Source of the DNA: Candidatus Bathyarchaeota archaeon
GTDB lineage: Archaea; Thermoproteota; Bathyarchaeia; 40CM-2-53-6
Assembly (NCBI GenBank): GCA_963845275.1
Contig: CAWJRR010000008.1
Coordinates: 3,129 to 67,128, forward strand
DNA length: 64,000 nt
Direction: 5' to 3'
The position numbers and the translations under genes were made by a program. Of the stretch, positions 11,391 through 58,736 are shown in pieces. Positions within the stretch are counted from its first letter, which is position 1; the number at the start of each line of letters is the position of its first letter. The notes below the pieces were generated by a model. It did no database searches and was not told the DNA's origin. It was given only the letters and a program-made list of their open reading frames with translations.

Positions 11391-11951
11391 CTACCGTCTG
11401 CCTTGGTTAAAGTCACAGTCGATAGGTACCCGTTCGATTGTTTGCGTATCCTGCACTTTCACCACGTTATCACTCGGATTGATCGTGACCGTTGTTGTGT
11501 ACATGTTGTAATTCGGCCAGCCGGAGTATCCGCAACGTATGTACCCATAGGGCCCGCGAAAACAACCTGTACTGTAGTACGGCGCGTAGTAACTGTAGTA
11601 CTGATTCTGAACGTAGAGGAGCGTTCCAGTGTACACTTGAACATTCTGCTGACTCATAGTCGAGTAAGCCTGGAGGGAAGTTTGGTATGACGTTGACTGA
11701 TAGAGTTCTGTGGTCATAGTTTGACCGCTAACGTAAACTATCTTATCCCTAGGGAAGACTGGCACCAATAGGACCAGTATAATTACGCCTATTGCGATTA
11801 TAACCCGTTTATCGACCCCACCAACTTTGCCACCCGTACTGCGTGTGACGGATGAAAGCCCCTTCGTTGATGCGCCACACTTCGGGCAGAATTCAGCATC
11901 AGGTTCCAGTTTCCTTCCACACGATTTACAGAACGATTCCGACTCGGACAT
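11391..11951 (-). CDS. Zinc-ribbon membrane-anchored protein with a Tyr-rich ectodomain; possibly continues into 11186-11416 after a frame change
   Basis: 186-aa ORF. It begins with a zinc-ribbon motif (CKSCGRKLEPDAEFCPKCG), followed by a TM helix (IIAIGVIILVLLVPVF). The adjacent overlapping ORF 11186-11416 is on the same strand. Confidence 0.5.
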   Translation of the reverse strand: MSESESFCKSCGRKLEPDAEFCPKCGASTKGLSSVTRSTGGKVGGVDKRVIIAIGVIILVLLVPVFPRDKIVYVSGQTMTTELYQSTSYQTSLQAYSTMSQQNVQVYTGTLLYVQNQYYSYYAPYYSTGCFRGPYGYIRCGYSGWPNYNMYTTTVTINPSDNVVKVQDTQTIERVPIDCDFNQGRR

Positions 11952-12020: not shown

Positions 12021-12866
12021 TCATGTTGACTTTTTCTCTTCTTCTACCTCTGCGTGATACTTCTTCTTGATCTCTGCGATATTCACGATCGGTGATGGAA
12101 ACTTCATGTTGAGTGATTCGAGTGTGTTCACAAGGATTCGTGATACGACTAGGTTACGGAACCATTTGTGATTGGCCGGGATGATGTACCATGGTGCATA
12201 GTCAGTGTTGCATTTGCTGATGGCGTCTTCGTAGGCTCTTTCGTACTCTTGCCAGTATCCACGTTCTGCGTAATCTGATTCACTGATCTTCCAGCGTCGG
12301 TTCGAGTCGTCCAGGCGCTGTTTGAATCTGGCGAGTTGTTCCTCCTTGTCGATGTGTAGATAGAACTTGAGGATACGTGTACCGTTGTCGAATAATTGCC
12401 TCTCGAAGGCAATAATCTCATCATATCGTCTGGACCAGACTTCCTTGGGAACTAGATTATGCACTCGCACCGCGAGCACGTCCTCGTAATGTGATCGATT
12501 GAATACTGACACGTAACCCTTCCGAGGTGTCGCTTGATGAATGCGCCAGAGATAATCATGTGCCAGTTCCTCGGCTGAGGGAGTTTTGAAGGCGTAGACT
12601 CGACATCCCTGCGGGTTCATCGCGGTTAGAACATGGTCGATTGTACCGTCCTTACCCGCGGCATCCATTCCCTGCAGTATGATGAGGAGCGACCGCTTGT
12701 TCTCTGCGTACATTAGATATTGTAGATCATGCAGTCGTACCGCATCTTTTTCGAGCTCAGCCTGAGCCGAATCTTTGTCTTCGTGTTCTCCTTTATAGCC
12801 GGCGTCGATTTCATCCAGTTTTACTTTACTGTTCGAATCAACCTTGAATTTCTTAGCATAATCCAT
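12021..12866 (-). CDS. ppk2: Polyphosphate kinase 2 family protein
   Basis: 281-aa ORF. LIILQGMDAAGKDGTI (Walker A of PPK2), YLWRIHQATPRKG and FNRSHYEDVL are typical of single-domain PPK2. Confidence 0.85.
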   Translation of the reverse strand: MDYAKKFKVDSNSKVKLDEIDAGYKGEHEDKDSAQAELEKDAVRLHDLQYLMYAENKRSLLIILQGMDAAGKDGTIDHVLTAMNPQGCRVYAFKTPSAEELAHDYLWRIHQATPRKGYVSVFNRSHYEDVLAVRVHNLVPKEVWSRRYDEIIAFERQLFDNGTRILKFYLHIDKEEQLARFKQRLDDSNRRWKISESDYAERGYWQEYERAYEDAISKCNTDYAPWYIIPANHKWFRNLVVSRILVNTLESLNMKFPSPIVNIAEIKKKYHAEVEEEKKST

Positions 12867-34621: not shown

Positions 34622-35221
34622 TTAAGCGAATAACTTTCTTTCTCGCCTGATGATTAGTGCAACCAGGCTTAAGGATAGTGTGAGTGGTATCGCTATGCTC
34701 CAGACGGGGAATTCTGGAGTCGCAGTATTAACCGACAACATGGATGAATTAGCGCTCGTTGTGAGTGTTATGAACGGAGGATAACTCAGATCGATTGTTG
34801 CGTAACCGCTGGCAATCTGACCTAAGCCGTTGTTTCGGTAGACGAAGAGCATGTAGTATGTCCCGCTGGTCGTGATGGCAGCGTTGTATGTATTGTTCGA
34901 TCCGCCGACTTGCGTATACATGAAGAGAGGATACGCACTTTGAGGAAGAGAGCAGGTGTTCCCTTGCACAAATGCGTTGAAGTCGTTTTGAGACAGAACA
35001 TAGAAATCGAGGGTGACATCAGCTGTGAAGTATCCCTGAATAATTTGACCCTTCTGTGCTGAAAATGCAAACGGAAGTAACGCACACTGATGCGGCGGAG
35101 GAGTGTTAACTGTCACAACCGTATACGCTGCGCCTGACTGGCTATTGGCGTTTGGAACTATGAGGAATGGAATGAAGATTGCGACGAGTAGAAGAATGGA
35201 GATTATGGCTTTGCTCGTCAT
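34622..35221 (-). CDS. Secreted protein with a PEF-CTERM-like C-terminal sorting signal
   Basis: An internal ATG at 35221 starts MTSKAIISILLLVAIFIPFLIVPNANSQS (signal peptide). The C-terminus is TPEFPVWSIAIPLTLSLSLVALIIRRERKLFA. It appears inside the 669-aa ORF only because the upstream gene lost its stop through a frameshift. Confidence 0.55.
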   Translation of the reverse strand: MTSKAIISILLLVAIFIPFLIVPNANSQSGAAYTVVTVNTPPPHQCALLPFAFSAQKGQIIQGYFTADVTLDFYVLSQNDFNAFVQGNTCSLPQSAYPLFMYTQVGGSNNTYNAAITTSGTYYMLFVYRNNGLGQIASGYATIDLSYPPFITLTTSANSSMLSVNTATPEFPVWSIAIPLTLSLSLVALIIRRERKLFA

Positions 35222-35280
35222 GCTATCACAGACAATAATGACGGTCAAGGTCTGGGCTATTAAACTGATCAGGTCATGTT

Positions 35281-36631
35281 TCAAGTCTTCATGTGAGGTA
35301 GGGACTGCGTTGGGCTGCCGTGGCAGTTCTTCACTTTTCGTCCACTTCCGCAGGGGCAGAGTTCGTTCCGTCCTAGTTTCTCCACCGCGGCCATGAGGGT
35401 CAGCGTTCTCCACTGCCAGAATCTTGCTGACCTCAGCTGCGGGGTGGCCATCGCGAATTAGCGTGGCCATTATCTTCATTGCGTGGTCGGCGTGGTTGAA
35501 GAATGCCTTGTACCCTGCACACAAGTAGTTTAAGCCTGGTTCTCCGTCGGGTGTTTTGATGAATCTGTTTTTTGGGCATTCTCCGTTACAGGCAAACCTG
35601 ACTTCGCACTCCCTGCAGTAGCGAGGTAGCGTGTCAAGCTTATCTTGACCGAACTTCTGCTGCTGGGCCGAAGCAACCAACTCGACCATGTGCTGTTCCT
35701 TGATGTTGCCCAACAGGTACTTGGGTTCGACAAAATGATCGCAGGAGTACATATCCCCATTATGCTCCAAGGCTAAGCCACGACCACACGTCTTGTCAAA
35801 AACGCACATCCCTGATGAAGGTAACCCAACCCAATTGCGTACCGCAGCCTCAAAAGTTTGAACGAATACTCGCCCGACGTCGTTGTGCACCCATTCATCG
35901 AAGATTGTTATGAGAAAGCGGCCGAACTGTTCAGCGCGAACAGAACGCTCAGAAACCGTTGTCCCTTCCTGGATTAATGTTAGGCCGCTTGAGTTGATTC
36001 GTTCAACTACCGGAATGAGTTGAATCCAGGTTGTTCTTGCTTCGTCACGCAGGAAACGGTAGACTTCAAGCGGATGATCACCATTGACACGGTTCACCGT
36101 GGTAAGAACATTGTACTCCACTCCATTATTCTGCAGCAAGCGGAGCCCGCGCATCACTTTATCGAACGTTGGCTTCCCCTTCCGATCAACACGGAACGCG
36201 TCATGCAACTCCCGTGGGCCATCAATACTTATGCCGACCAAGAAATCGTTCGCTCTAAGAAACTCACACCACTGATCACTGAGCAGCGTACCATTCGTTT
36301 GAATCGTGTTTTCGAACGTCATCCCCGGACGCCGGTACTTTTTCTCATACTCGATCGCGCGCCGGAAGAAATCGAGGCCCATCAAGGTCGGTTCGCCACC
36401 CTGCCAGGCAACTGTCACTTGATTTGTGCGATGGGATTCAATCAGCTGCTTAACGTATTGTTCGAGGAGTTGATCATCCATACGAAAACTGCTGCCTGGA
36501 TAGAGCTGCTCCTTATCCAAGTAGAAGCAGTACGCGCAGTCTAGGTTGCAGATTGCACCCGTCGGTTTAGCTAGTACGTGGAAGCTGGGGGGACCGGTAT
36601 TGCTCATTGCTTCCGCGCTCAACGACTCCAC
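35281..36631 (-). CDS. Anaerobic sulfatase-maturating enzyme (radical SAM/SPASM), with a frameshift near the 3' end
   Basis: It has the radical SAM motif [16 protein letters not shown] and the SPASM Cys clusters ([18 protein letters not shown]). A SEC-C-like [14 protein letters not shown] (35341-35358 onward) is readable only in another frame, which ends at a TGA at 35281-35283. Confidence 0.8.
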
Positions 36632-42412: not shown

Positions 42413-43201
42413 ATGAATTTCTGGGATCTCCCCCTCTTCACTCTCAGCTTTACAACCTTCACCATAGTTGACCTCCTGGCTGCGACAACAAATGCGTTCA
42501 ACGGTGCACTGCTCTGTCGAAGCCCCTCTCATTATCGCAATTATACTAGTCGTTGGAATCATCTTGATGGCTTTGCTTGGGCGGAATCGGCGGAGGAGTA
42601 TCCCGTGACGTTCTCCTGAATAAGATTCCGTCAGCCTTCACTAATCCGCTGTACGTTTTGCTGTGTGTCGTAGCAGCCAATCATTGCTTTGCAGATACAC
42701 TATAGGACTGGCCAGGCGTTCCGTGAGGGATTGTTCACGTTCATGACCGCTTTCTCCTTGCCCTGGTATGCGGTGGTTGGATGTGATGCGGCTTTGAGAG
42801 CAGGTCTCCCAGCCTTGGCGGCGATCGTTATCGGAATTGTTGGACCGACTGCTGGACGATACTTCATCGACATAACCTCGGGTGTAACACCGACGCATTT
42901 CGTGAGAGGGCGAATGGTTTGTGGGCACAGCCGTCCTAACAAGCGCTGTTTACGTTGTTTGCTATTGGTCTGGGACTTTCTTTAGTTCCGGCGAGTCTCA
43001 TCTCCTTCGCCGTAGGATTCACGTTCCGCCTCACCGCGCTGCACAAGGGCTGGGAGGAACCTGAGCCGATAGACCAGCCGCAAAAAGCCCGAACCCCCAA
43101 CAGAAACCCTAGGCACCCCGAAGGAAGAATTGGAAAAGCTAGAGAAGGCGAGAAAGGAAGAGCTAGAGAAGGAGAGGGCGGCTGGAAAAACAGGAGAATA
43201 A
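42413..43201 (+). pseudogene. UPF0126/TRIC-like membrane protein, heavily frameshifted
   Basis: Family-like peptides are readable only by hopping frames: IVDLLAATTNAFNGALLCRS / IIAIILVVGIILMALLG / GGIGGGVSRDVLLNKIPSAF..VVAA / IIALQIHY..AVVGCDAALRAGLPALAAIVIGIVGPTAGRYFIDI / GEWFVGTAVLTSAVYVV / FAIGLGLSLVPASLISFAVGFTFRLTALHKGWEEPEP / KKPEPPTE..EELEKLEKARKEELEKERAAGKTGE-stop (43199-43201). Confidence 0.65.
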
Positions 43202-46230: not shown

Positions 46231-48627
46231 CTACTGTATTGACATGTGTATGCGGAATCGTTCCTCTGGCGTGATCAGGTGATCATGGCTGTCGGAACCC
46301 ACGTCGATCTGAACCCACCGAACCTTACCCGTGAAGTCGTTTCCTCTTACCCCGAAGTCTTTGCAGATCGGGGCCCCCGTCTTGTTCCCGACCTCGGTTA
46401 CTGAGTCTGCCGAGAAAACTACAGCGTGCGTATGTTCCACACGACCTTGACCTACCTGCTTCCCGTCAACGTAGAGTGTCGCCACGCCTCCTTTCCCGAG
46501 CCCGCCGCCATCGTACTTGAACTCCATGCGTACTTGGTGTTTTCCTTCCGGCAGGGTTTCAGACGCTTCCACCATGTAGGTCTCCATGCCGAGGAAGTTG
46601 TAGACATACTTGAGCCTCCCCTGATACGCGTATAGAGCCCATCCGCCGAAGTTTCCGCCCTGAGCAACTATCACTCCTTTAACACCTGGAGCCAATCGAG
46701 GAAGGCGTGTCGCTTTTGGTACCTCGATATTGGCTGTGACTTGATGCGACTTATTCTTGATGTCGATCGTAGTATTGTCGCCACCGAAGTATGCTATGCC
46801 CGGAAAGAGGAGCTGAGTGTTTCCGCTGATTAGTTGAGGCCGGCCCGCCATTGCGGGTATCATCCGCTCGGCCTTCCGGTCATCTAAAGGTAGCACGTTA
46901 TGGCGCGTAGCCTCTATCAACCATAGTCGCTGAAGTTCGTGAAGCTTTTCTGGGTTCGTCTTCGAGATGTCTTCCGCCTGAGTCCAGTCTGTTGGAGCGT
47001 AGAGTTCCCAGACATCATCATCGAATGCTCGCAACTTCTCCGCTGTGAGAAGCCAGGGCGTGCTGTGCTTGGTGACTGCGGTCCAGCCCTTGTAGTATAT
47101 GCCTCGGTTACAGAACATTTCAAAGTACTGAAGCTCGCGGTGCTCAGGAGCTTTGGGATCATCGAACGTGTACGCCATACTCACTCCCTCCATTGGATGC
47201 TGTCCGACACCGTCCACGTTGCGTGGTTCAGGGATTCCTGCCACGTCGAGAATGGTTGGAGCAATGTCGATCACGTGATGGAACTGAGTCCTGATTTGAC
47301 CTTTCGATTTAATGCGGCTAGGCCAGTGAATTATCGTACCGTTCCTCGTGCCACCCCAGTGGGAAGCCACTTGCTTCGTCCACTGGTAGGGTGTGTTCAT
47401 GGCATGAGCCCAGCCCACCGCATAATGATTGTAGGAGTCTCTTCCACCAAAGTCATCCAGGTGCTTCATCAAGTATTCAGGAGTCTCAAGTTCTCCAGCC
47501 CCGTTGAAGTTGCCCATCTCGTTGAAAGTTCCGTTAAGTGTGCCTTCAGCAGAAGCGCCATTGTCGCCTATGATGTAGATTACGAGGGTCTCGTCCAGGA
47601 TCCCTAGGTCCTTCAACGCGTCAATTAATCTGCCAACATGATGGTCGGTAAACTCCATGAAACCTGCGTACACTTCCATTTCGCGCCTGAGTACGGGTTT
47701 CAGGTTTTCTGGCATCGCGTCCCACGCAGGTATCTCTTTGTGTCTCGCAGTCAGCTTCGCATCACTGGGGATGACTCCGAGTTGCTTCTGTTTTGCGAAG
47801 GTACGTTCGCGGAGCTTATCCCAGCCATCGTCAAACTTACCCTTGTACTTATCAGCCCACTCCTTCGGAACATGATGGGGTGCATGTGTAGCACCGGGGG
47901 CGAAGTAGACGAAGAAAGGCTTGTCCGGTGCAGTTGCCTTCTGCGCGCGAATGTAGGAAATCGCCTTATCGGTCATATCAGGAACTAAATGATATTCCGG
48001 ATCGTCGGGAAGCTCAACTCGAGTCGTATTATCGAGAAGCTCCGGGAACCACTGGTTGGTCTCCCCTGCCTGGAAACCGTAGAACCGTTCGAATCCACCG
48101 CCGCCTGCTGGCCAATGTTCCATGGGGCCGATCACGTTATTCTCCCACACTGGAACTTCGTGGCATTTACCGAACTGAGCTGTTGAGTACCCATTTAATT
48201 TCAGGATCTTAGCAACCGGCGCCATATTATTCATACGCATAGAGGTGTAGCCTGGGATAGCGGTCGCTGTTTCAGTAATGGAACCCATCCCAGCCGTATG
48301 ATGGTTACGACCGGTCAGCAACGCTTGACGTGTCGGCGAACAAAGAGCAGTCGTATGGAAACGCGTATACCTGAGACCTTCAGAAGCAAGCCTCTCCGCG
48401 GTAGGCGTATTACACGGTCCACCAAACGCGCTAGACGAACCAAAACCTGCATCGTCAATCAGAATCAGAAGCACGTTAGGCGCTCCAGGAGGAGGACGCA
48501 CGGGCTTAATGGCAGCGAATTTCGAATCCGGATCCTTAGCGTCATAAAGAATAGGCCCAGCGTAAGCGAGGTCAGGTATAGGTAAACTCGACCGGTAACC
48601 TGCCAACGGATCTTTCGAAGATGACAT
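46231..48627 (-). CDS. Arylsulfatase, Cys-type, ~800-aa class, no signal peptide
   Basis: 798-aa ORF. It has NVLLILIDDAGFG, TTALCSPTRQALLTGRNHH and GDNGAS, and is colinear with 29733-32114. Confidence 0.9.
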   Translation of the reverse strand: MSSSKDPLAGYRSSLPIPDLAYAGPILYDAKDPDSKFAAIKPVRPPPGAPNVLLILIDDAGFGSSSAFGGPCNTPTAERLASEGLRYTRFHTTALCSPTRQALLTGRNHHTAGMGSITETATAIPGYTSMRMNNMAPVAKILKLNGYSTAQFGKCHEVPVWENNVIGPMEHWPAGGGGFERFYGFQAGETNQWFPELLDNTTRVELPDDPEYHLVPDMTDKAISYIRAQKATAPDKPFFVYFAPGATHAPHHVPKEWADKYKGKFDDGWDKLRERTFAKQKQLGVIPSDAKLTARHKEIPAWDAMPENLKPVLRREMEVYAGFMEFTDHHVGRLIDALKDLGILDETLVIYIIGDNGASAEGTLNGTFNEMGNFNGAGELETPEYLMKHLDDFGGRDSYNHYAVGWAHAMNTPYQWTKQVASHWGGTRNGTIIHWPSRIKSKGQIRTQFHHVIDIAPTILDVAGIPEPRNVDGVGQHPMEGVSMAYTFDDPKAPEHRELQYFEMFCNRGIYYKGWTAVTKHSTPWLLTAEKLRAFDDDVWELYAPTDWTQAEDISKTNPEKLHELQRLWLIEATRHNVLPLDDRKAERMIPAMAGRPQLISGNTQLLFPGIAYFGGDNTTIDIKNKSHQVTANIEVPKATRLPRLAPGVKGVIVAQGGNFGGWALYAYQGRLKYVYNFLGMETYMVEASETLPEGKHQVRMEFKYDGGGLGKGGVATLYVDGKQVGQGRVEHTHAVVFSADSVTEVGNKTGAPICKDFGVRGNDFTGKVRWVQIDVGSDSHDHLITPEERFRIHMSIQ

Positions 48628-48930
48628 GAAACATCAAACCAGTAGGGATGATAGTTAAAACTTTGCATAATGAATTCAGTGCAGACAGTCCTAGTCCAAA
48701 CGTCCTAGCTTGATTTCACGCGGCGCCGAATAGCTTGTGATCCTCAGGACCACGCAGCCGAGAATCATCGACCCGTGCATGACGATTCCCCTTCCCAACA
48801 CTAGCCTGGGAGAGCTGAGAGAGTGCTTCTTTGATTCTTGAACCGAAGATGTTTTGAATACTCCGCCTTTCTTACTCCTGTGCTGCTCTTGACCGAACTT
48901 TCGGAGGCTCAAAGGCGTTGGCCGATAGGC

Positions 48931-50583
48931 ATGGGCATTTTCCCGATTGCTAAGTCAGAGTTTCCGAGAAACGTCCTCGCCGGTATTACGTTGGCGACCC
49001 TGGCGATTCCTGAAGTTATGGGTTATACGAGAATTTCAGGCACCCCTGTTATTACTGGTCTCTTCACGATTCTGCTTCCAATGGCGCTGTACTCGTTCTT
49101 CGGGTCATCACGGCACTTAGTTGTTGGCGCTGACTCAGCAACGGCCGCAGTTCTAGCAGCTGGGCTACTAGGACTCGCCGCGGTCGGCTCTCCTGAGTAT
49201 GTGGCATATGCGGGCGTACTTGCCTTGATGGTTGCGGGAATGTTGATCCTAGCGCGTTTGGTAAAACTAGGATTTCTAGCGGACTTCCTCTCCCGGACGG
49301 TTCTGGTTGGTTTCCTTGCAGGCGTGGGTATCGAAATCGCTATCAAGCAAATTCCGGACATGCTTGGAATCTCGGGACAGAGCGGCGGAGTAATTCAGGA
49401 AATAGCCACTGATTTTCTGTCAATCTCCAATACGAACGTCTATTCGCTCGCAATCTCGATCGCGCTTTTGGTCGTAATCTTCGGAACGAAAAGAATCTCA
49501 CGAAAAATACCAGTGGCGTTATTTGCCGTTTTGGCTGTGATCGTTGTAAGCTACGTGCTCAATCTTTCTTCGCACGGAGTCCCCGTGCTTGGACCGATTC
49601 CAAGCGGATTACCTCAAATCGCCTTCCCCAACCCACCAATGAATTGGGTCATACTCCAGCAACTATTACCTATAGCCGCATCCATGTTCGTAATCATACT
49701 GGCACAAAGTGCCGCGACTTCACGGGCCTACGCAGACCGCTACAATGAACACCTCGACGAGAACTTGGACCTAGTTGGACTCGGGCTTGCAAACATTGGC
49801 GCAGCTTTGTCCGGCACGTTCGTCGTAAACGGTAGTCCAACGAAGACTGAGATGGTTGACAGCGCCGGAGGTCGAAGTCAGCTCGCCCAACTTACAACCG
49901 TGGCCATCGTACTCGCAGTCCTACTCTTCTTGACGGCTCCCTTGTCCTATATGCCATACGCGGTTCTGGCCGCGATAGTCTTCACCATAGGAGTTGAACT
50001 CGTCGATGTGAAACAAATGCGTCAGATCTTCGTCCAACGTCCGAGTGAATTTTGGGTAGCAGTTCTCACTGCTGGTACCGTAGTCTTCGTGGGAGTCGAG
50101 CAAGGCATCGTACTAGCAATTCTTCTGTCACTTATTGACCATACCCGCCGGGGTTATCGACCGAAGAACATTGTGCTCGCTTTGGACCAAGACGGCGGCC
50201 GGCAAGTAAGACCAGTGAGTAGCCACGCCCAACTTCTCCCAGGCCTAATCGTCTACCGTTTCAACCACAGCATGTACTACGCAAATTGCGAACAACTCAA
50301 AACTGAAGTCCGCGAGTTGGTGATGGGAGCGAAACCCCCTCTCTCTTGGTTCTGTCTAGACCTAGGTGGGGTCGATGACATAGATTTCTCGGCAGCCGAA
50401 TCGCTGCGCCAAACTTTCGAGTTATTGAAGCAACAATCCATCAGACCCATATTCGTTGAGGTGCAAGATACAGCACTCGCCGAATTAGATAGGTACGGGA
50501 TTACCACTCAATACGTCTTCGGACACATTCACGAAGTAGACGCCGCCTACCGGCAGACGATTGAGGGTCACGTCGACAATTGA
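48931..50583 (+). CDS. SulP-family anion (sulfate) permease with a C-terminal STAS domain
   Basis: It has NVLAGITLATLAIPEVMGY, multiple TM helices and a STAS-like tail (LIVYRFNHSMYYANCEQL....DLGGVDDIDFSAAESL). ATG at 48931 is preferred over the listed start at 48838. Confidence 0.85.
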   Translation: MGIFPIAKSEFPRNVLAGITLATLAIPEVMGYTRISGTPVITGLFTILLPMALYSFFGSSRHLVVGADSATAAVLAAGLLGLAAVGSPEYVAYAGVLALMVAGMLILARLVKLGFLADFLSRTVLVGFLAGVGIEIAIKQIPDMLGISGQSGGVIQEIATDFLSISNTNVYSLAISIALLVVIFGTKRISRKIPVALFAVLAVIVVSYVLNLSSHGVPVLGPIPSGLPQIAFPNPPMNWVILQQLLPIAASMFVIILAQSAATSRAYADRYNEHLDENLDLVGLGLANIGAALSGTFVVNGSPTKTEMVDSAGGRSQLAQLTTVAIVLAVLLFLTAPLSYMPYAVLAAIVFTIGVELVDVKQMRQIFVQRPSEFWVAVLTAGTVVFVGVEQGIVLAILLSLIDHTRRGYRPKNIVLALDQDGGRQVRPVSSHAQLLPGLIVYRFNHSMYYANCEQLKTEVRELVMGAKPPLSWFCLDLGGVDDIDFSAAESLRQTFELLKQQSIRPIFVEVQDTALAELDRYGITTQYVFGHIHEVDAAYRQTIEGHVDN

Positions 50584-50640
50584 GGATGCAGATAGTGGAA
50601 ACCGCGTTCAAGAGGAGAATCGCTGAGGAAGTGCAGGCTC

Positions 50641-51181
50641 ATGAAGGAAGTTGAAGTTAAGATAATCGAAATCGACCGAGGACAGGTTGAAGTTAAGCTG
50701 ATGTCTTTAGGGGCTACGAAGACTCTTGATGATGACGTTGACACATTATTCTTCGACTTTCCAGATAACTCAATCTCGAACGCAAAGAACCTGCTACGGC
50801 TCCGGAGAGTCGGAGATAAGACGACACTCACATTCAAGAAATTCGTTGAGAGCGACACGGCCAAAGTCAGAGTCGAGAACGAGGTGACAGTATCCGATCT
50901 TGAAACTGCCAAATCGATACTCCAATCTCTAGGTCTCATCTCAACGCTGCATATGGAGAAGCATCGGACGAGTTACTCGCTTGCCGAGCGGTGTAGAAGT
51001 TGATGTAGACGAGTACACCGGACGGTACTCGCATATTCCGACCCTTCTAGAGATAGAGGGACCGGACGCAGCCACGGTACAGGCACATGCCAAATTGCTC
51101 GGGTTCAAGCCTGAACAATGCAAGTCCTGGACAACATTCGACCTTATAGATTATTATTCTCGTAAGGAATTAGGAACGTGA
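50641..51181 (+). pseudogene. CYTH-domain (class IV adenylate cyclase / triphosphate tunnel) protein, split by one frameshift
   Basis: ORF 50641-51003 starts MKEVEVKIIEI (the EXEXK motif). ORF 50981-51181 carries GVEVDVDEYTGRYSHIPTLLEIEG. The frame change lies near 50978-50985. Confidence 0.7.
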
Positions 51182-53346
51182 AGCCGTTGGAGTCAACACC
51201 CTCGGTCCAGGTCGCGGATGAAGAATCTGTGAAGAGCAGATCGCTGGATGATCCTTCGCTTTTCATAAACCGAGAGGTAAGTTGGATAAGGTTCAACTAT
51301 CGAGTTCTCGAAGAGGCGCATGACACGACTCACCCGCTTCTAGAGCGGGTGAAATTCCTCGCCATCAGCGGAAGTAACTTAGATGAATTCTTCATGACCC
51401 GCGCCTCAATCTTGGAGCAGCACGTCGAAAGAGGCGATTTTGAGCCAACACCCGGCTCTCGCATGACCCCTCTGGAGCAGATTAAGGTCACTAGGAGCGA
51501 AATCCTCCCGCTTCTCAAGAAACAGAAAGAGTGTTGGAAAAAGGAATTAGCCCCAGCACTAGCCAAGGAAGGAATACGCATCCTAGAACCTCAAGATCTC
51601 ACCCCCCAGCAGAGTCGAACGCTCCGTGAGTATTTTGAGAAGGAAATCCTTCCAGTCATGAAGAAACCCGACGCGGAATACGTCGCTGGATACATCTCCA
51701 ACCTTCACGTGAACTTACTTGTAGTCGCTAACGATCCTCGAATGAGCGAGGCCCCGACTAAGCTCTTAGTCGAAGCGCCCACCGACACGTTTGACAGGTT
51801 CATCCGAATACCGCCAGTTGAGGGTCGAAAGAACGAGGATAATTTCATACTGCTAGAAGATCTGGTTGCTTCGAATCTGGATCTACTGTTTCCAGCTTCC
51901 AAAATTCTTAGCTATTATAAGTTTAGAGTGACTCGAAATGCTGAGATAGATGTTGTAGCAGATGAAAAGACTGACTTTCTTACTACGATGGAGTTGAGCA
52001 TAAGACAGAGGCGCCACGGGAAGCCTGCTCGACTTGAGTTCCAAGCTTCTATGCCACAACACTTACGCGAATACCTAACACAAAGCATAGGAGCGTTCCA
52101 TGTTCCAAGCGTCGAAGATGTCCAGTACGAGATTGATGGCCCCTTTGGACTAGTTGACCTCTGGCAGCTCCTCAAACTGAAAAGACCCGACCTGAAAGAC
52201 ACCCCCTTCCAAGGATTCATAGTCCCCGAATTAGGACCCGGTAAACATTTCAGCGAACCAATAGCCGCAAGGGACTATGCGCTCTACCATCCCTACGACA
52301 GCTTCGATATGGTTGTGAACGTTCTCGCAGACGCAGCCATCGACCCAAATGTCACGGAAATCTACATCACCCTCTACCGAATCGACCCGGACTCTCCTGT
52401 AATTTCACACTTGATGAAGGCGGCATCAAGCGGGAAGAAAGTGACAGCCCTAATCGAGCTGAAAGCCAAATTCGACGAGGCAAACAACATCAACTGGGCA
52501 AAGGTGATGACTCAAGCAGGCGTCAAGGTCGTCTACAACTTCCCCAAGATCAAAGTACACGCAAAGCTCGCTCTCATAATTAGAAGAGAGGACGGAAAGG
52601 CGATTCAATATTCACACCTTGGGTCAGGCAACTACAACACGGTCACCACGCGAATCTACGGAGACATAGGCTACTTGACCTCCAACCCCGAGATAGGAGC
52701 GGAAGTCTCTGATCTCTTCAGTAAACTAACTACTGACCCTAGAAAGGCGGGGCCTTACAAGCATCTGCTAGTTGCACCTACCTCGCTCAAGAATGAAATC
52801 CTCAGCCGCATCGACAGGGAAATAGCTTCACACCAGAAGACGAAAGACGGCTATCTTGCCTTCAAGATGAACGGGCTCGTCGATAAGAACATCATTCAAG
52901 CACTCTACAGGGCTTCGCAAGCAGGTGTCAAGATAGACCTTAACGTTCGAGGACTCTGCTGTCTGAGACCAGGCATTCAAGGCATTAGCGAGAACATTCG
53001 CGTCGTATCAATTGTCGGAAGATTCTTGGAACACGCGCGAATATACTACTTCAGAAACGGCGGCGAAGAGGAAGTCCTGCTGGGAAGTAGCGACATGATG
53101 CCGAGGAATCTTGAGAAGAGGGTTGAAGTCTTATTCTCCGTACCCGACCCGAAAATAAAGTTAGCAATATTGCGAATTCTTAACGTGCATTTGAAGGATA
53201 ACGTGAAAGCTAGACGTCTCCTTTCGAACGGCACTTATGAGAGAGTTAAGCCTAGACCAGGCGAGGAACTGGTCGATTCCCAACTCTGGTTGATCAATAA
53301 CAGAGGAGCATGGCATGAGATCCCGCCCATCCCCGAGCATGCCTGA
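51178..53346 (+). CDS. ppk1: Polyphosphate kinase 1
   Basis: 722-aa ORF. It has FINREVSWIRFNYRVLEEA, PLLERVKFLAISGSNLDEFF and KIKVHAKLALI (the phospho-His region). The GTG start overlaps the CYTH stop (GTGA). Confidence 0.9.
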   Translation: MKPLESTPSVQVADEESVKSRSLDDPSLFINREVSWIRFNYRVLEEAHDTTHPLLERVKFLAISGSNLDEFFMTRASILEQHVERGDFEPTPGSRMTPLEQIKVTRSEILPLLKKQKECWKKELAPALAKEGIRILEPQDLTPQQSRTLREYFEKEILPVMKKPDAEYVAGYISNLHVNLLVVANDPRMSEAPTKLLVEAPTDTFDRFIRIPPVEGRKNEDNFILLEDLVASNLDLLFPASKILSYYKFRVTRNAEIDVVADEKTDFLTTMELSIRQRRHGKPARLEFQASMPQHLREYLTQSIGAFHVPSVEDVQYEIDGPFGLVDLWQLLKLKRPDLKDTPFQGFIVPELGPGKHFSEPIAARDYALYHPYDSFDMVVNVLADAAIDPNVTEIYITLYRIDPDSPVISHLMKAASSGKKVTALIELKAKFDEANNINWAKVMTQAGVKVVYNFPKIKVHAKLALIIRREDGKAIQYSHLGSGNYNTVTTRIYGDIGYLTSNPEIGAEVSDLFSKLTTDPRKAGPYKHLLVAPTSLKNEILSRIDREIASHQKTKDGYLAFKMNGLVDKNIIQALYRASQAGVKIDLNVRGLCCLRPGIQGISENIRVVSIVGRFLEHARIYYFRNGGEEEVLLGSSDMMPRNLEKRVEVLFSVPDPKIKLAILRILNVHLKDNVKARRLLSNGTYERVKPRPGEELVDSQLWLINNRGAWHEIPPIPEHA

Positions 53347-53366
53347 ATCCTCCAAAGACGGCTACT

Positions 53367-54924
53367 GTGCGCTTGCAGCAGCTAACGCTTCGCCGGCAGA
53401 CGAAGGAACTTGAAAAGCAATTCGACGGAGCCCGAAAGAATACCAATATCGAGTACGTCCACAAGCTCAGAGTTGCATCCCGCAGACTAAGAGCTTCCCT
53501 CAACGTCTTCGAGGAGTGCTTTGACCCGAAACTCACAAAGAAGTGGAGAAAGAGAACCAGGAACTTGACGAGATCCGTCGGCGCAGCGAGAGACGCAGAC
53601 GTACAAATAGCCTTCTTAGAGAATTACGCTAGAGCCCTTCAGGACCCGGCCGCAACTTCCCGGACTCGAGTACATCTTAGCGTCGAAGAGATCGATCAGG
53701 AAAGGAATGCAGTCCGACGTAATCGAAGTCCTGGACGATCTGAAAGGCTCAAGAATACTCGAGGAAATCTCTGACAGCTGTAAGACAATTTCAACATCCA
53801 CCAACGAACAAGGTATCGCATCGTTAACGACGTTCGAGAGGGCACACGATAAGATAGCTGTAAAGCTTGATCGAGCTGCTGGCCTTCGAACCCTTCGTCC
53901 ACAACGAGGCTGCCGCACCGAAACATCATGAAATGCGCATAGCCGCAAAACGGCTCAGGTACACGATGGAAATTTTCTCACCTATTTACAAGAGTGGACT
54001 GAGCGATCAAATCTCCCTCCTGAAACAGTTTCAAGATGTACTAGGTGACATCCATGACTACTTTGTATGGATGCAAGAACTGAGAGCCGATAGGTCAGAT
54101 ATTCCAATCGAGGCGAGATACGGAGTCACCAAACTGCTGACAGATCTTACGGAAATGAGAAAGACCCGATACAGAAACTTCGTCTTTCTCTGGGATGATA
54201 CAAAAGCCAACGGCCTCTTCGAAAGGATACGACAATTAACAGACGTAGGACCACGAAGCGCAATACTCCAAGAGATACTCCAGAGGGATAGAAGGGTCGC
54301 AGTTATCTCCGACATTCACGGTAACCTAGACGCATTACGCGCCGTTGTTTCCGACGCCCAGGCATTAGGATTGCAGGTTTTCTTGAATGCAGGCGACGCC
54401 GTCGGGTTCGGCATCTACCCAAGTCAAGTCATTCAAGCAGTTCGATCAGCTACTTTCCTGAACGTAGACTGGAAACGTGGACTTAGAAGTCCTTGACACG
54501 CTACGTAATCCCAACTCCAAAGGAGACGAGGCAGGTAAAGAACTCGCTATTGACGAATTAACACCCGTCAGACGTGACGTACCTCCAATCATTACCCAAA
54601 GAATTGCGACTCCAAATCGACGGTAAGACCATCTTAGTCACTCATGGAACACCAGAGTCAGTGGATGAACACCTCTACCCTGATTCTCCAGTAGAACGAT
54701 TCCGAGAAATCGCACTCAAAACGAGCGCTGACGTAATCATCACAGGTCACACTCACACGCCGATGAACAGGGACGTTGACGGCGTGATCTTCATGAATCC
54801 TGGAAGCGTTGGCAGATCGGTCGACGGAGACCCTAGAGCCGAATACGCAGTGCTCAGTCTCGACCCCCTCAGCATAGAGTTCAGGAGAGTGAATACGACT
54901 TCGAAACCGTCGCCAACCAGATGA
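53367..54924 (+). pseudogene. CHAD domain fused to a calcineurin-like metallophosphoesterase, with at least four frame changes
   Basis: CHAD helices are readable: VHKLRVASRRLRASLNVFEECF..GAARDADV, then HEMRIAAKRLRYTMEIFSPIY. The MPP motifs follow: VAVISDIHGN, NAGDAVGFG, GNVDLEV and ILVTHGTPES..IITGHTHTP. The pieces lie in frames 3/1/2/3/1, with switches near 53650-53660, ~53870, ~54465 and ~54565. Confidence 0.7.
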
Positions 54925-55640
54925 GGAAGAAAGGCATGCCAGAGAACCTTGCCCAAGTGCTCGTCCGCGCCCTCCCGTCGAGCGTCATTAAGAAACAGGA
55001 AGAAGAACTCAAGAGAAAACCGGTATGGAAGAACAGATCCACTATCACTAAAGTCAGAGAAATCGCTATGAAGTACCTTCCTGACGAAACACACCCCGAG
55101 CAAGATAGAAAACTTGCTTTGATGATATTCGACAAAACTAAGAAACTGCATCGCCTCGGCAGCGAAGAACGCTACTGGCTCGAATGCGCAGCTCTCCTCC
55201 ACGACATCGGACTCTCCAGAAGCGGGAAGGCGCATCACAAGTCGTCACTCAACCTAATACTGAACGATCCGAATCTTCCATTCACATACAAGGAAAGATA
55301 CCTGATCGGAAGCATCGCAAGGTATCATCGGAAGGCGCTTCCCAACAAGAAACACTTCAACCTCAAACCACTCAACCAAACTGAGAGGGAGAAAGTGGCA
55401 ATTCTCTCATCCATCCTGCGAGTAGCGGATGCATTCGATTACTCTCACAAAGCCATCGTCTCGGGCGTGAATATCAAAACATTTCCTAATCATATCGCTC
55501 TTGAGTGCAGATTCTCCGGAAATCACGACCTCGAGGACATGTCGGTCGGTAAGAAGAAAGATCTCTTTGAGAAAACGTTCAAGAGCGCATTGACGATCGT
55601 CTGGAAACCCGAACTTACTGCTAGACGCATTGCTTCATGA
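54921..55640 (+). CDS. HD-domain protein related to the C-terminal domain of Ppx/GppA
   Basis: 239-aa ORF. It has ECAALLHDIGLSRSGKAHHKSS....IGSIARYHRKALP. Its ATG overlaps the preceding stop (ATGA). Confidence 0.7.
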   Translation: MRKKGMPENLAQVLVRALPSSVIKKQEEELKRKPVWKNRSTITKVREIAMKYLPDETHPEQDRKLALMIFDKTKKLHRLGSEERYWLECAALLHDIGLSRSGKAHHKSSLNLILNDPNLPFTYKERYLIGSIARYHRKALPNKKHFNLKPLNQTEREKVAILSSILRVADAFDYSHKAIVSGVNIKTFPNHIALECRFSGNHDLEDMSVGKKKDLFEKTFKSALTIVWKPELTARRIAS

Positions 55641-55854
55641 GCAGCAACCTCGAAATCCAAAAGCGTATGACAATAAGACTCACGTAGGGTACGTGAACTG
55701 GCGAATAGAATCAAGTACAACCTCGAGTTTGTTGGCTAATCCACTTCAAGTTCTCTTCTGTACACGTTCTCGAACCATGCAGGAGTTCTTCGCGACGGCC
55801 CACCTCTCTAGCAGCAAGCCTCCACGTCCGGCCAGTCGTAACTTTACCTTCGCC

Positions 55855-57256
55855 TTACCGATTGTAACGTGCAGTCGTTTCAGCTTTTCCCGCATGTTCT
55901 CTGTCAAGAGCTTCCGCGAGGCGTAGGAGTGGCCCTAACTTATTCACAACGTTCCGTTGCGCTACGGAAAGCTCTTCGTACTCTTTATGGTCTGGCTTTG
56001 GCAATGCTCTGCTATGATATCGGACGATAATCGCAACAATCTCTCGTTGAGAGTCGCTAAGTCCGATTATCGGTGACGCCTTGATCAAATAGTACGAGTG
56101 TTTGTGGTGATCAGTCATCCCGATGTAGTAGCCTATGTCATGCAAGAGCCCTGCAACCTCAAGTAGTGTCCGTTCTTTGGGCCCGAGTTTGTGCAGTCTC
56201 CGAGTTGAATCGAACAGGTTCAGTGCAATACGAGCCACAGTCATGGAATGTTGTGCATCATAGTCAAACTTCCTTCCGAAGAGTTTGGCAGATGAGGTGA
56301 CTTGCAAGTGATAGAAGGGTTCTTCGACTTTGCGAAGTTTAGACGCCATGTCGACTAAAAGACCATCCCTGAGTCCCACTCGAGGAATGAGTATGCGATT
56401 AACACGAGCGTGTTGGGCAATATTCTGGAGGACTATGGCCGCGGGAATTATGACGTCCGCTCGGTCTGGCCGCAGCTTGAATTTTCTCATTCTATCTTCA
56501 TACGACTTCGATTCAAGTCGCACGAGAATCGAATCAAGGTCCTGGGTAGTGAGTGAAGTGGCGTTTTTCCTGCCACAAAGCTGAACTCCCAGCTCCCCCA
56601 ACGCTTCGACATTGCCGCCTGTCGCTATGCAGAAGCCGATCCTGTGGGCCGCTAGTTCCTTCTTTAGCCGCGTATCTGCGACGTTCAAGTAGGCATGAAC
56701 TAGTTGTCGAAAAACTTTGTCACCACGCTTCTTCTGCTCAAGCATTTGAAGTAGCCTAACGGTGCCTGTGGCGAAACTCTCAGTTACCAGAATCTCACGT
56801 TGATTGGCGAGGCTGATCTCGACACTGCCGCCTCCAATGTCGACGATCAAGGCGAGTTTGCGTTTCAACTTAACGTTGCTCGTGACAGCTAAATGAATGA
56901 GGCGCGCTTCCTCGTCTCCGCTAATGGGCTCTATTGTTATTTCGGAGGCCTTCGCGATTTGGTCGATAACGTATTCCCGATTGCTGGCCTCTCTGAGCGC
57001 ACTCGTGCCTACGGCTCTGACTAATTTCGCTTTTTCCGGCGTTGATAAGCTTCCGGAACTTCAGGAAGGCGTCCATTGCCTCGACGAGTCGCTTATTGGA
57101 GATCTCTCGGTTTGCGAAGACATCGGCTCCAAGCCGAACTGGTTCTCGAGCAGTATGGATTAGGTCAAGTTTTCCTTTGTCATCTGCTGACGCGATTGCC
57201 AATCGAATTGCGTTCGATCCAACGTCAATCGCGGCCAACTTCGGCATGCTATGCAC
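55855..57256 (-). pseudogene. ppx: Exopolyphosphatase Ppx/GppA, split by one frameshift in a homopolymer
   Basis: ORF 56921-57256 starts ..KLAAIDVGSNAIRLAIA. ORF 55855-56868 carries LIVDIGGGSVEIS and the HD region (LLHDIGYYI..HHKHSYYLI). The connecting peptide AKLVRAVGTSALREASNREYVIDQIAKASEITIEPISGDEEARLIHLAV is in frame with the downstream part. The switch occurs at the T5 run at 57031-57035. Confidence 0.8.
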
Positions 57257-57392: not shown

Positions 57393-58736
57393 TTGACTAT
57401 CCCCATTTCAGAACTCAACAGTTCCGGACCCAGCCTTCCAACTACTCGGCCTGCGAATGCACCGCCAGTGTTTCATCTCCTAGCAAAACCTCGAGGCGCT
57501 ATCTGTAATCTCGATTGTAAGTACTGTTTCTACCTTTCCAAGGAGCAACTCTACGCGGGTAGCACATTCCGCATGACGGATGAGATGCTGGAAACGTATA
57601 TCCGACAACTCATAGAATCCCACACGACCAGCGAAGTTACTGTGGCATGGCAGGGCGGTGAGCCAACCCTGATGGGGCTCGATTTTTTCAGGCGTTCGAT
57701 CGTGTACGAAAAGGAATATGCAAGACCGGGGATGCAGATTCAGAACACCATTCAAACGAATGGAACCTTGATCAATGATGAGTGGGCAGCCTTCTTCAAG
57801 GAGAATAATTTCCTGGTCGGCCTCAGCATAGACGGCCCCCGCGAGATGCACGATTATTACCGAGTCGACAGGCAGGGAGCACCAACCTTCGATCACGTTA
57901 TGCGCGGCTTACGTTTCCTGCAGAAGCATGAAGTCGAATGGAACGCGCTTACGACGATTCACCATGCGAACGCTGATCACCCTGTGGAAGTTTACCGTTT
58001 TCTACGTGACGAATGCAAAGCAGGATTCATCCAATTCATCCCAATCGTTGAGCGACTCACGCCTGACAGCAGCAAAGTGACTGATCGTTCAGTGACTGCT
58101 GAACAATACGGCAAGTTCCTTGTTGGCGTCTTCGAGGAGTGGGTGAGGCGTGACGTTGCTAAGGTGTATGTGCAAATGTTCGATGTCGCACTCGCGAATT
58201 GGCACGGCGAACCCTCAGGCTTGTGCGTTCACTCCGAAACTTGCGGAGGCGCACTGGCCATTGAACATAATGGTGATCTATACTCTTGCGATCATTTCGT
58301 TACTCCCCAGTACAAGCTGGGTAACATCAAACAGAAGCATATGATTGAATTAGTGGGGTCGGATCAGCAACTCAAGTTTGGGCGGGATAAGCTCGACACC
58401 CTTCCTAAATACTGCCGCGAATGCGAGGTGCGCTTCGCATGCCACGGCGGCTGCCCGAAGGACCGATTCATCACAACGCCCGACGGAGAACCGGGACTAA
58501 ACTACCTGTGCGCGGGCTTCAAGATCTTCTTCAACCACATCGATCAGCCTATGAAGACTATGAGCCAACTACTCCACAGAAATCGGGCACCCGCAGAGAT
58601 AATGCAAACGTATGCAAAGCAAGGGATCATGGAACCTGACCTGGATACGCACGCCTCCACGTGCTCTATTTCCACAGAATATCGGCTTGCGAACAAAACT
58701 ATGAGTCATTACTCAATGTTGGATGAAACATACTGA
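57393..58736 (+). CDS. Anaerobic sulfatase-maturating enzyme (radical SAM/SPASM), second copy
   Basis: 447-aa ORF. It has CNLDCKYCFY, GGEPTL and [18 protein letters not shown]. By eye it shares a majority of residues with the 35281-36631 product. Confidence 0.85.
   Translation: MTIPISELNSSGPSLPTTRPANAPPVFHLLAKPRGAICNLDCKYCFYLSKEQLYAGSTFRMTDEMLETYIRQLIESHTTSEVTVAWQGGEPTLMGLDFFRRSIVYEKEYARPGMQIQNTIQTNGTLINDEWAAFFKENNFLVGLSIDGPREMHDYYRVDRQGAPTFDHVMRGLRFLQKHEVEWNALTTIHHANADHPVEVYRFLRDECKAGFIQFIPIVERLTPDSSKVTDRSVTAEQYGKFLVGVFEEWVRRDVAKVYVQMFDVALANWHGEPSGLCVHSETCGGALAIEHNGDLYSCDHFVTPQYKLGNIKQKHMIELVGSDQQLKFGRDKLDTLPKYCRECEVRFACHGGCPKDRFITTPDGEPGLNYLCAGFKIFFNHIDQPMKTMSQLLHRNRAPAEIMQTYAKQGIMEPDLDTHASTCSISTEYRLANKTMSHYSMLDETY

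Follow-up and report, generated by a model that had tools for sequence, protein, structure and literature searches.

The polyphosphate (polyP) cassette of this Candidatus Bathyarchaeota genome carries ten frame breaks, which we take, with a probability of about 0.85, to be consensus errors of a patchy metagenome-assembled genome (MAG) and not selective decay, a judgment drawn from sequence comparisons. The cassette lies in a stretch of 64,000 nucleotides (hereafter the window), whose numbering is used throughout. The first-pass annotation of this DNA had left two readings side by side, a snapshot of the loss of polyP mobilization or a set of consensus errors. The latter is favored over the former, given ten unique one-base lesions, the absence of a decay signature, and the presence of the same damage in core genes. 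Most likely, there has been no real loss of polyP turnover. The true content would be an intact-type CYTH-PPK1-(CHAD-MPE-HD)-PPX cassette (MPE, metallophosphoesterase), conserved in a Bathyarchaeia genus from peat.

Genes of the polyphosphate cassette

Pfam searches matched the gene content and order given in the first-pass annotation, i.e., a SulP/STAS permease, CYTH, ppk1, CHAD-metallophosphoesterase, HD, and a convergent ppx, and also agreed with its assignment of a distant PPK2 gene, whose frame is intact (Table 1).

Table 1. Features of the polyphosphate cassette, its neighbors, and the PPK2 gene in the window
Feature	Coordinates	Strand	Evidence
SulP-family anion permease, C-terminal STAS, open frame	48838..50583	+	Pfam Sulfate_transp 2.9e-75, STAS 2.4e-08
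CYTH / triphosphate tunnel metalloenzyme, split	50641..51181	+	Pfam CYTH 8.2e-12 on first piece
ppk1, polyphosphate kinase 1, 722 aa, open	51178..53346	+	Pfam PPK1 domains
CHAD-metallophosphoesterase (YfcE/Metallophos_2)-HD (Ppx-GppA domain III) fusion, ~771 aa, broken	53315..55640	+	Pfam on pieces
ppx, Ppx/GppA-family exopolyphosphatase, broken	55736..57256	-	Pfam Ppx-GppA and Ppx-GppA_III on 337-aa piece
PPK2, polyphosphate kinase 2, 281 aa, open	12021..12866	-	Pfam PPK2 2.8e-74, profile positions 3-226/229
Sulfatase, 798 aa, left neighbor; last gene of sulfatase island	46231..48627	-	Pfam Sulfatase 8.8e-67
Radical-SAM/SPASM anaerobic sulfatase-maturase-like gene, right neighbor	57393..58736	+	Pfam Radical_SAM, SPASM

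The alignment to the closest relative (genome G002) revealed a single one-base insertion in CYTH, an extra C at 50984, as had been reported; the orthologue in G002 has 179 aa. The N terminus of the protein (MKEVEVK) carries the ExExK motif defined for CYTH proteins (PMC8233210) at residues 3 to 7 (EVEVK), and the fold profile is matched as well. The TGA of CYTH is overlapped by the GTG of ppk1 (GTGA), an arrangement also found in G002 and already described for an intact ppk1, which the open frame bears out. PPK1 holds its four-domain architecture (N, head, C1, and C2) in one open frame, with PF13089, PF02503, PF17941, and PF13090 (PP_kinase_N, PP_kinase, PP_kinase_C_1, and PP_kinase_C) all near full length. 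The protein is 96% identical in amino acids to that of G002, and the alignment of five genomes showed no indel specific to the MAG in ppk1. The SulP permease likewise had no indel relative to G002 over the portion present in that genome.

The fusion gene differs most from its earlier description, which had at least four frame changes in a CHAD-metallophosphoesterase gene followed by a separate, intact, ATGA-coupled HD gene. The frame changes are there in the sequence, but they were undercounted: we found six, comprising five insertions (53382, 53657, 53871, 54467, and 54563) and a one-base deletion after 54893. The deletion splits off the HD part, leaving CHAD and Metallophos at 53367 to 54924 and HD/Ppx-GppA_III at 54921 to 55640, and it accounts for the apparent ATGA coupling of the second piece. 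What looked like an HD gene is the C-terminal domain of a CHAD-MPE-HD protein, encoded by a single ORF of 762 to 800 aa in G002, G004, G013, and G014. Once the lesions are compensated, the gene, whose start overlaps the end of ppk1, encodes 771 aa that are 92% identical to the G002 protein, with zero internal stops.

The CHAD profile is matched on two pieces (positions 3 to 112 and 170 to 228 of 228), which covers both four-helix bundles. Comparison of the G002 orthologue with PDB chains matched residues 28 to 303 to the CHAD structure 6qv7 (PDB), residues 325 to 549 to the metallophosphoesterases 3rqz, 3qfm, and E. coli YfcE 1su1 (E values from 1e-22 to 5e-6), and the C-terminal part to the PPX structure 8jgt (PDB). 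The motif set sought for calcineurin-like metallophosphoesterases (D-x-H, GD, GN-x-D/E, H, and GH-x-H) occurs as SDIHG, AGDAVG, GNVD, THG, and GHTH in the G002 protein and in the compensated reading of the MAG; in the raw frames of the MAG, GNVD lies behind the insertion at 54467. At least 560 homologues of the fusion protein were identified; most belong to Bathyarchaeia, and one is from [Eubacterium] cellulosolvens. PGAP labels the protein "YfcE family phosphodiesterase." A literature search found no paper describing a CHAD-MPE-HD architecture, and this association of CHAD, a YfcE-like metallophosphoesterase, and a PPX C-terminal domain is one point of modest biological interest. In yeast, Ppn2 is a metallophosphoesterase endopolyphosphatase. 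By analogy with Ppn2, and from the fusion to CHAD and a PPX domain, we infer that the MPE domain is a putative polyphosphatase, and the fusion enzyme may reasonably be regarded as a candidate polyP-tethered phosphohydrolase.

The ppx gene carries three one-base insertions (57039, 55883, and 55781), instead of the single frameshift counted before, and its true extent is 55736 to 57256, whereas the pieces matched by Pfam span 55855 to 57256. It is not one uninterrupted frame in the assembly and is colinear with a 505-aa protein of G002. Its 337-aa piece combines PF02541 (N-terminal ASKHA) with PF21447 (domain III, HD), the architecture of the Ppx/GppA family.

Together, these genes would form a normal polyP cassette of this genus, here with a SulP permease in front. 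PPK1 would make polyP from ATP, CHAD may tether the fusion enzyme to long-chain polyP so that its MPE domain could hydrolyze polyP or a polyP-related phosphoanhydride, and PPX would trim the chains. The predicted role of CYTH is to clear tripolyphosphate end products, while PPK2, 40 kb away, may rephosphorylate nucleotides with polyP.

Conservation of the locus in relatives

Each cassette gene is in one open frame in four congeneric genomes and in about 45 contigs from peat metagenomes. The comparison across genomes proposed earlier thus reveals a locus that is syntenic and unbroken in relatives, and its gene order is colinear with contigs C44 and C74 of G002 over the whole region. Within the genus, the cassette belongs to the accessory genes: 9 of 18 congeners have ppk1. 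The proposal of a combined S/P-scavenging island is weakly supported: the linkage of sulfatases, SulP, and polyP genes is common to G002, but the adjacency of SulP does not persist beyond the closest relatives, an orthologous permease lying directly upstream of CYTH in only 3 of the ~22 loci with enough flank. Identical intact alleles of the MAG's genes were not found in public collections. Look-ups of the exact PPK1 and HD-piece sequences gave no hit, the scan of metagenomes gave no match to these genes above 96% identity, and none of the proteins clustered at 90% with the fusion protein was an intact allele of the MAG's type.

Origin of the frame breaks

The cassette accumulates ten one-base indels, of which CYTH has one, the fusion gene six, and ppx three; nine are insertions and the tenth is a deletion, and at every site the MAG alone deviates from G002, G004, G013, and G014. 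When the ten are compensated, the cassette genes have no internal stop. Neither nonsense codons nor indels of varied length, as in a true pseudogene, were found (10/10 lesions are of one base). Counts per branch in the fusion gene and ppx, with G004 as the outgroup, gave 36 nonsynonymous and 60 synonymous changes for the MAG and 37 and 82 for G002 (Fisher test; P = 0.39), revealing no excess of amino acid changes on the MAG branch of the kind that relaxed selection would leave. The nonsynonymous share in these two genes is far under the neutral value of 0.74 (P = 6e-14).

The same type of lesion was found in unrelated conserved genes and is absent from the nearest relative, which is what an assembly error would produce. 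One-base insertions outside homopolymers also break ilvE, leuD, cobD, rad50, etfA, and genes for a P-type ATPase, a sulfatase, and a UPF0126 protein, and G002 is intact at every one of these genes that was compared. Pfam confirmed the splits of the P-type ATPase, Rad50, EtfA, and glycerate kinase, and the amino acid identity to G002 is 99.6% for the split cobD. In the window itself, the UPF0126 gene has six one-base insertions (261 aa and intact in G002), a sulfatase is broken by three frame changes, and the anaerobic sulfatase-maturase (anSME) gene is fused to its neighbor by one insertion. Within ~181 kb of alignment with G002, the MAG has 30 frame-breaking events at places where the frame of G002 is open, and the one-base events among them are 20 insertions and 2 deletions (P = 1e-4). 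A hexamer-Viterbi scan of the whole genome made 175 frame-switch calls, a rough figure, since the finder recovers about half of the known sites and is misled by conserved pairs of overlapping genes (window positions 2496 and 5200, with the same ORF layout in G002). In 69 of these calls, a rough floor that includes one trivial end-of-gene call (window position 3709), the downstream part is left without a possible start codon. The MAG has 23 contigs and a completeness of 78.5%, against 93 to 100% in its relatives.

The ten lesions are clustered, with 10 in 6.1 kb where ~0.3 would be expected from the background outside the contig (P = 3e-12). This clustering, together with five clean aminoacyl-tRNA synthetase genes (~10 kb), led us to reject uniform random error, and a patchy technical cause must therefore be assumed. 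Homopolymer error was rejected because the inserted bases stand in runs of length 1 or 2, and a shared motif or methylation site because the ten sites have no common context. In six of eight cases, the inserted base is one that relatives carry as an alternative allele in the neighboring alignment column (P = 0.01 by simulation), and the lesion-rich segments are those closest to G002 (93 to 94% versus 87 to 90% elsewhere). Both observations are compatible with a collapse of co-occurring strains. The breaks would then be single-base consensus errors, nearly all of them spurious insertions, spread patchily through a contiguous, 78% "complete" MAG, and would probably go back to poor resolution of a long-read or hybrid consensus in places where close strains co-occur. 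The contrast drawn in the first-pass annotation between intact synthesis and broken turnover holds for the presence of the breaks. Since the evidence favors consensus errors, finding them beside an intact ppk1 is most likely due to chance, and nine events scattered over 6 kb can readily leave a gap of 2.4 kb (estimated P about 0.2).

A real and very recent loss of CYTH, CHAD-MPE-HD, and PPX in a wave of insertion-biased inactivation that spared PPK1 and PPK2 is the strongest competitor, although an unlikely one. The breaks do stand in the deposited sequence, where they are concentrated in the polyP cassette, the UPF0126 gene, and one sulfatase while neighboring genes are open, and the presence of ppk1 in only half of the congeners suggests that loss of the cassette is tolerated in the lineage. 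If real, they would offer a rare snapshot of an archaeon abandoning polyP mobilization yet retaining synthesis. Natural indels in prokaryotes vary in length and are biased toward deletions. The lesions are instead all of exactly one base, with insertions outnumbering deletions 9:1, the branch of the MAG has neither a nonsynonymous excess nor a nonsense codon, and the G002 frames are open at the MAG's breaks. The same damage in ilvE, leuD, cobD, rad50, and etfA, not all of which would be dispensable, also speaks against it. That every cassette gene for polyP degradation or binding was freshly inactivated and both kinases kept, all before substitutional decay set in, seems improbable to us; behind it would stand a mutational burst with an unusual bias toward insertions, one that struck biosynthetic genes as well.

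A chimera of strains or a mis-binned contig, in which the broken genes are a decayed second copy and an intact copy lies elsewhere, is very improbable. It would fit the closer similarity of the lesion-rich segments to G002, but ppk1 is single copy in the whole assembly, the region is colinear with C44 and C74, and the substitutional decay expected of such a copy is absent. Programmed +1 frameshifting or transcript editing, to which the perfectly conserved compensated frames and the same fix (skipping one base) at 9 of the 10 sites might point, can be practically dismissed, since the ten sites share no motif, slippery site, or stop codon, one of them requires the opposite correction, the extra bases occur in none of the four congeners or ~45 metagenome loci, and pervasive +1 decoding has, to our knowledge, no precedent in archaea.

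With consensus errors as the preferred explanation, no frameshift or "pseudogene" called in any part of this MAG should be given a biological meaning unless reads back it. The completeness of 78% is probably too low as a result of broken markers.

Comparison with known systems

The MAG resembles other indel-ridden long-read or hybrid MAGs in its high contiguity, low marker completeness, and many one-base breaks in conserved genes. Unlike the homopolymer deletions usual in such MAGs, its errors are patchy insertions outside homopolymers.

In both the cassette and the E. coli-type ppk-ppx operon, a four-domain PPK1 adjoins an exopolyphosphatase of the Ppx/GppA family. The cassette differs from the bacterial operon in its archaeal host (Bathyarchaeia), in its two extra genes (CYTH and the CHAD fusion), and in the orientation of ppx, which is convergent in some species and tandem in others. 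The CYTH protein, a predicted triphosphatase, is, like SaTTM of Sulfolobus acidocaldarius (PMC8233210), a small stand-alone archaeal CYTH with an N-terminal ExExK, but its gene sits inside a polyP cassette. The association of CYTH and CHAD with polyP, pointed out in the first-pass annotation, is correct and was previously known: CHAD proteins of polyP operons are likewise encoded beside polyP kinase and phosphatase genes (Lorenzo-Orts et al., bioRxiv 10.1101/567040). YgiF is a CYTH-CHAD fusion, whereas here the fusion partners of CHAD are a metallophosphoesterase and a PPX-type HD domain, and CYTH is a stand-alone protein of 179 aa encoded in the same locus. The metallophosphoesterase domain is shared with 3rqz, 3qfm, and YfcE, which are single-domain proteins, while that of Bathyarchaeia is part of a fusion.

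Polyphosphate cassette and its relatives

ORF listing and Pfam scans returned the gene order that the first-pass annotation had given for the polyphosphate (polyP) block. In the block, ppk1 is intact, with all four PPK1 domains and no lesion, and GTGA-coupled to CYTH; PPK2, elsewhere in the window, is also intact. The HD protein, described there as a separate intact gene with ATGA coupling, has to be reassigned: in relatives, CHAD, metallophosphoesterase (MPE), and HD domains are read in one frame, and it is therefore the C-terminal domain of a CHAD-MPE-HD fusion and has no gene of its own; the fusion gene spans 53315-55640.

Frame-broken and split genes, with neighboring features. Positions are those of the window unless a contig (C6 to C22) of the genome is named; insertions and deletions are of one base unless stated
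Feature	Position	Strand	Evidence	Frame breaks	ORF in closest genome
Zinc-ribbon membrane protein (ORF)	11391-11951	-		insertion ~11440, shortens ORF	open for 322 codons
PPK2	12021-12866	-	Pfam	intact	
Sulfatase paralogue, 790-aa type	23842-26208	-	tblastn with 798-aa paralogue: frames -2, -1, -3, -2	three frame changes in C-terminal third	
Radical-SAM/SPASM maturase (ORF)	34622-36631	-		insertion 35402	457 aa
UPF0126/TRIC-like membrane protein	42547-43186			six insertions, one two-base deletion	261 aa, intact
Sulfatase, flanks polyP block	46231-48627	-	ORF listing, Pfam		
SulP/STAS permease	48838-50583	+	ORF listing, Pfam		
CYTH, two frames	50641-51181	+	ORF listing, Pfam	insertion 50984	179 aa, open
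ppk1, 722 aa	51178-53346	+	Pfam; GTG overlaps CYTH TGA		722 aa, open
CHAD and MPE fragments of fusion	53367-54924	+	ORF listing, Pfam	insertions 53382, 53657, 53871, 54467, 54563; deletion after 54893	776 aa, open (CHAD + MPE + HD in single ORF)
HD/Ppx-GppA-domain-III ORF	54921-55640	+	ORF listing, Pfam		
ppx, convergent, two ORFs	55855-57256	-	ORF listing, Pfam	insertions 57039, 55883, 55781	505 aa, open
Radical-SAM/SPASM maturase, flanks polyP block	57393-58736	+	ORF listing, Pfam		
leuD, ilvE, cobD, rad50 (beside mre11), P-type ATPase, etfA	C22:97652-99238; C12:167279-168239; C6:7801-10800; C15:39292-41385; C19:50875-54010			split	

The comparison across related genomes proposed in that annotation showed the CYTH-ppk1-fusion-ppx cassette to be syntenic in four congeneric genomes, and its CYTH-ppk1-fusion part in about 45 metagenome contigs. 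All cassette genes are open in the closest genome (G002, Candidatus Bathyarchaeia archaeon isolate SPRUCE 253), whose PPK1 is 96% identical to that of the studied genome (G000), and likewise in G004, G013, and G014 (fusion ORF of 762 to 800 aa, ppx of 503 to 505 aa). In the metagenome contigs (tblastn), CYTH, ppk1, and fusion are always colinear, and the fusion, as far as each contig covers it, gives one HSP in a single frame; ppx either neighbors them, on one strand or the other, or is not on the contig. An intact allele of the G000 type was found neither in the public metagenome scan nor in the fusion-protein cluster, and exact look-ups of proteins encoded in the window gave no match. Related contigs derive from peat and bog metagenomes. 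In one public contig of the lineage (OCOJ01034903.1, 195-2344), ppk1 itself lies in three frames; frame-broken polyP genes recur elsewhere as assembly noise. Contig DATKOK010000002.1 of G004, with the same genus and cassette, is titled “Candidatus Methylomirabilota bacterium,” probably a taxonomic mislabel.

The order sulfatase-SulP-polyP recurs in G002, in which SulP spans the junction of contigs C44 and C74. The linkage behind the proposed sulfur- and phosphorus-scavenging island is thus common to both genomes, but an orthologous SulP lies directly upstream of CYTH in only 3 of the ~22 loci with enough flank, and the order is a local arrangement and not a conserved module.

Single-base breaks across the genome

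Pairwise and five-genome DNA alignments, parsed by script, revealed ten sites where G000 alone differs from the four other genomes. Each lesion is a single base in length, with insertions at nine of the ten sites, while ppk1 has no G000-specific indel site in the five-genome alignment. The genes and breaks of the first-pass annotation are real in the sequence, as is its single CYTH frameshift. Its lesion counts were otherwise wrong: the CHAD gene has six breaks (five insertions and one deletion) instead of “at least four,” and ppx has three insertions instead of one frameshift.

The breaks are not confined to polyP genes. In the window, the UPF0126 gene is the densest lesion patch seen, and the insertion at 35402 extends the maturase into the neighboring gene, for an ORF of 669 aa. 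A dicodon-based Viterbi scan that included frameshift states and had been trained on the long ORFs of G000 made 175 frame-switch calls across the genome, which are not a count of true breaks, since the scan miscalls conserved overlapping gene pairs. It found five of the ten known polyP-block sites and placed three of its calls in the broken sulfatase; for 69 calls, the downstream part lacks any possible start codon. Two window ORFs without Pfam matches (1707-2543 and 2500-3801, + strand) share 44 nt, read in different frames, a layout kept in G002 (278 and 433 aa) and therefore a genuine overlap, not a frameshift. Complementary domain halves in different frames were identified with Pfam for a P-type ATPase, Rad50, EtfA, and glycerate kinase. 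The ilvE gene is in three frames and leuD and cobD in two each; all three are open in G002, to which CobD is 99.6% identical in amino acids. Over ~181 kb aligned between G002 and G000, 30 events have the frame open only in G002 (20 one-base insertions and two one-base deletions; P = 1e−4). The opposite class has 15 events, all marginal short ORFs save one, in which an insertion and a deletion 81 nt apart compensate each other within a G000 ORF of 772 aa.

Origin of the frame breaks

We consider it very probable (about 85%) that the frame breaks are an assembly artefact. Consensus errors, one of the two readings offered by the first-pass annotation, explain them best, given the same breaks genome-wide and the lack of a decay signature. 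Lesions are not uniformly spread in G000 (2.26 Mb, 23 contigs, rated 78.5% complete): ten fall in 6.1 kb versus ~0.3 expected from the background outside the window's contig, C8 (P = 3e−12), and five aminoacyl-tRNA synthetase genes are free of frame breaks. In six of eight insertions, the inserted base matches an alternative allele that relatives carry in the adjoining column (simulated P = 0.01), as though the two alleles of a SNP had been placed one after the other, and lesion-rich segments are the closest to G002 (93 to 94% versus 87 to 90% elsewhere). Both observations suggest a technical cause of the patches: near-identical co-occurring strains may have been collapsed, or threaded by few long reads, in which case the lesion-rich segments would be expected to be those closest to G002.

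The other reading, a loss of polyP mobilization with synthesis retained, draws on the intact ppk1 beside broken turnover genes. A lesion-free stretch of 2.4 kb, as in ppk1, is, however, unremarkable for nine events in 6 kb (by our estimate, P about 0.2), so this pattern requires no biological explanation. Once its lesion columns are compensated, the fusion reads through 771 aa (92% identical to G002) with the natural stop as its sole stop. Substitutions polarized with G004 as outgroup (synonymous/non-synonymous, G000 versus G002 branch) were 35/23 versus 46/23 in the fusion, 25/13 versus 36/14 in ppx, and 44/16 versus 45/11 in ppk1. The branches did not differ for fusion and ppx pooled (Fisher P = 0.39), and the non-synonymous share was far below the neutral expectation (P = 6e−14). 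Had ten indels accumulated neutrally in 4.4 kb, many tens of unconstrained substitutions would be expected beside them; none were seen in fusion and ppx. Decay of turnover is thus not supported. Homopolymer extension as the origin of the inserted bases is ruled out, since the runs are of only 1 to 2 bases.

ARAGORN found only 3 tRNA genes in the 23 contigs without intron search and ~24 candidates with introns allowed, some implying implausibly long introns; as far as these candidates go, nearly every tRNA gene of the archaeon seems to be interrupted.

Predicted functions and the CHAD-MPE-HD family

From family knowledge, PPK1 would polymerize polyP from ATP, PPX would degrade the chains, and PPK2 would use polyP as phosphoryl donor. 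The item worth keeping is the fusion, an uncharacterized enzyme family best studied in the intact relatives, on which our literature search found no paper. It has at least 560 homologues (~770 to 800 aa) of the same Pfam architecture, the majority from Bathyarchaeia and labeled “YfcE family phosphodiesterase,” and one in [Eubacterium] cellulosolvens (46% identity); in peat Bathyarchaeia, its position next to ppk1 is conserved. The stand-alone CYTH, with an ExExK motif, is probably a triphosphatase like SaTTM, which is archaeal (PMC8233210). The fusion protein combines a CHAD domain (residues 28 to 303, like PDB 6qv7), a YfcE-like metallophosphoesterase carrying every metal motif (residues 325 to 549, like 3rqz and 3qfm), and the HD-type domain from the C-terminus of exopolyphosphatase (residues 586 to 754, like 8jgt). 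The CHAD module, known from polyP operons, binds long-chain polyP specifically and enhances the polyPase YgiF (10.1101/567040); with this binding and the three-domain make-up, we expect the fusion to be a candidate polyP-tethered phosphohydrolase.
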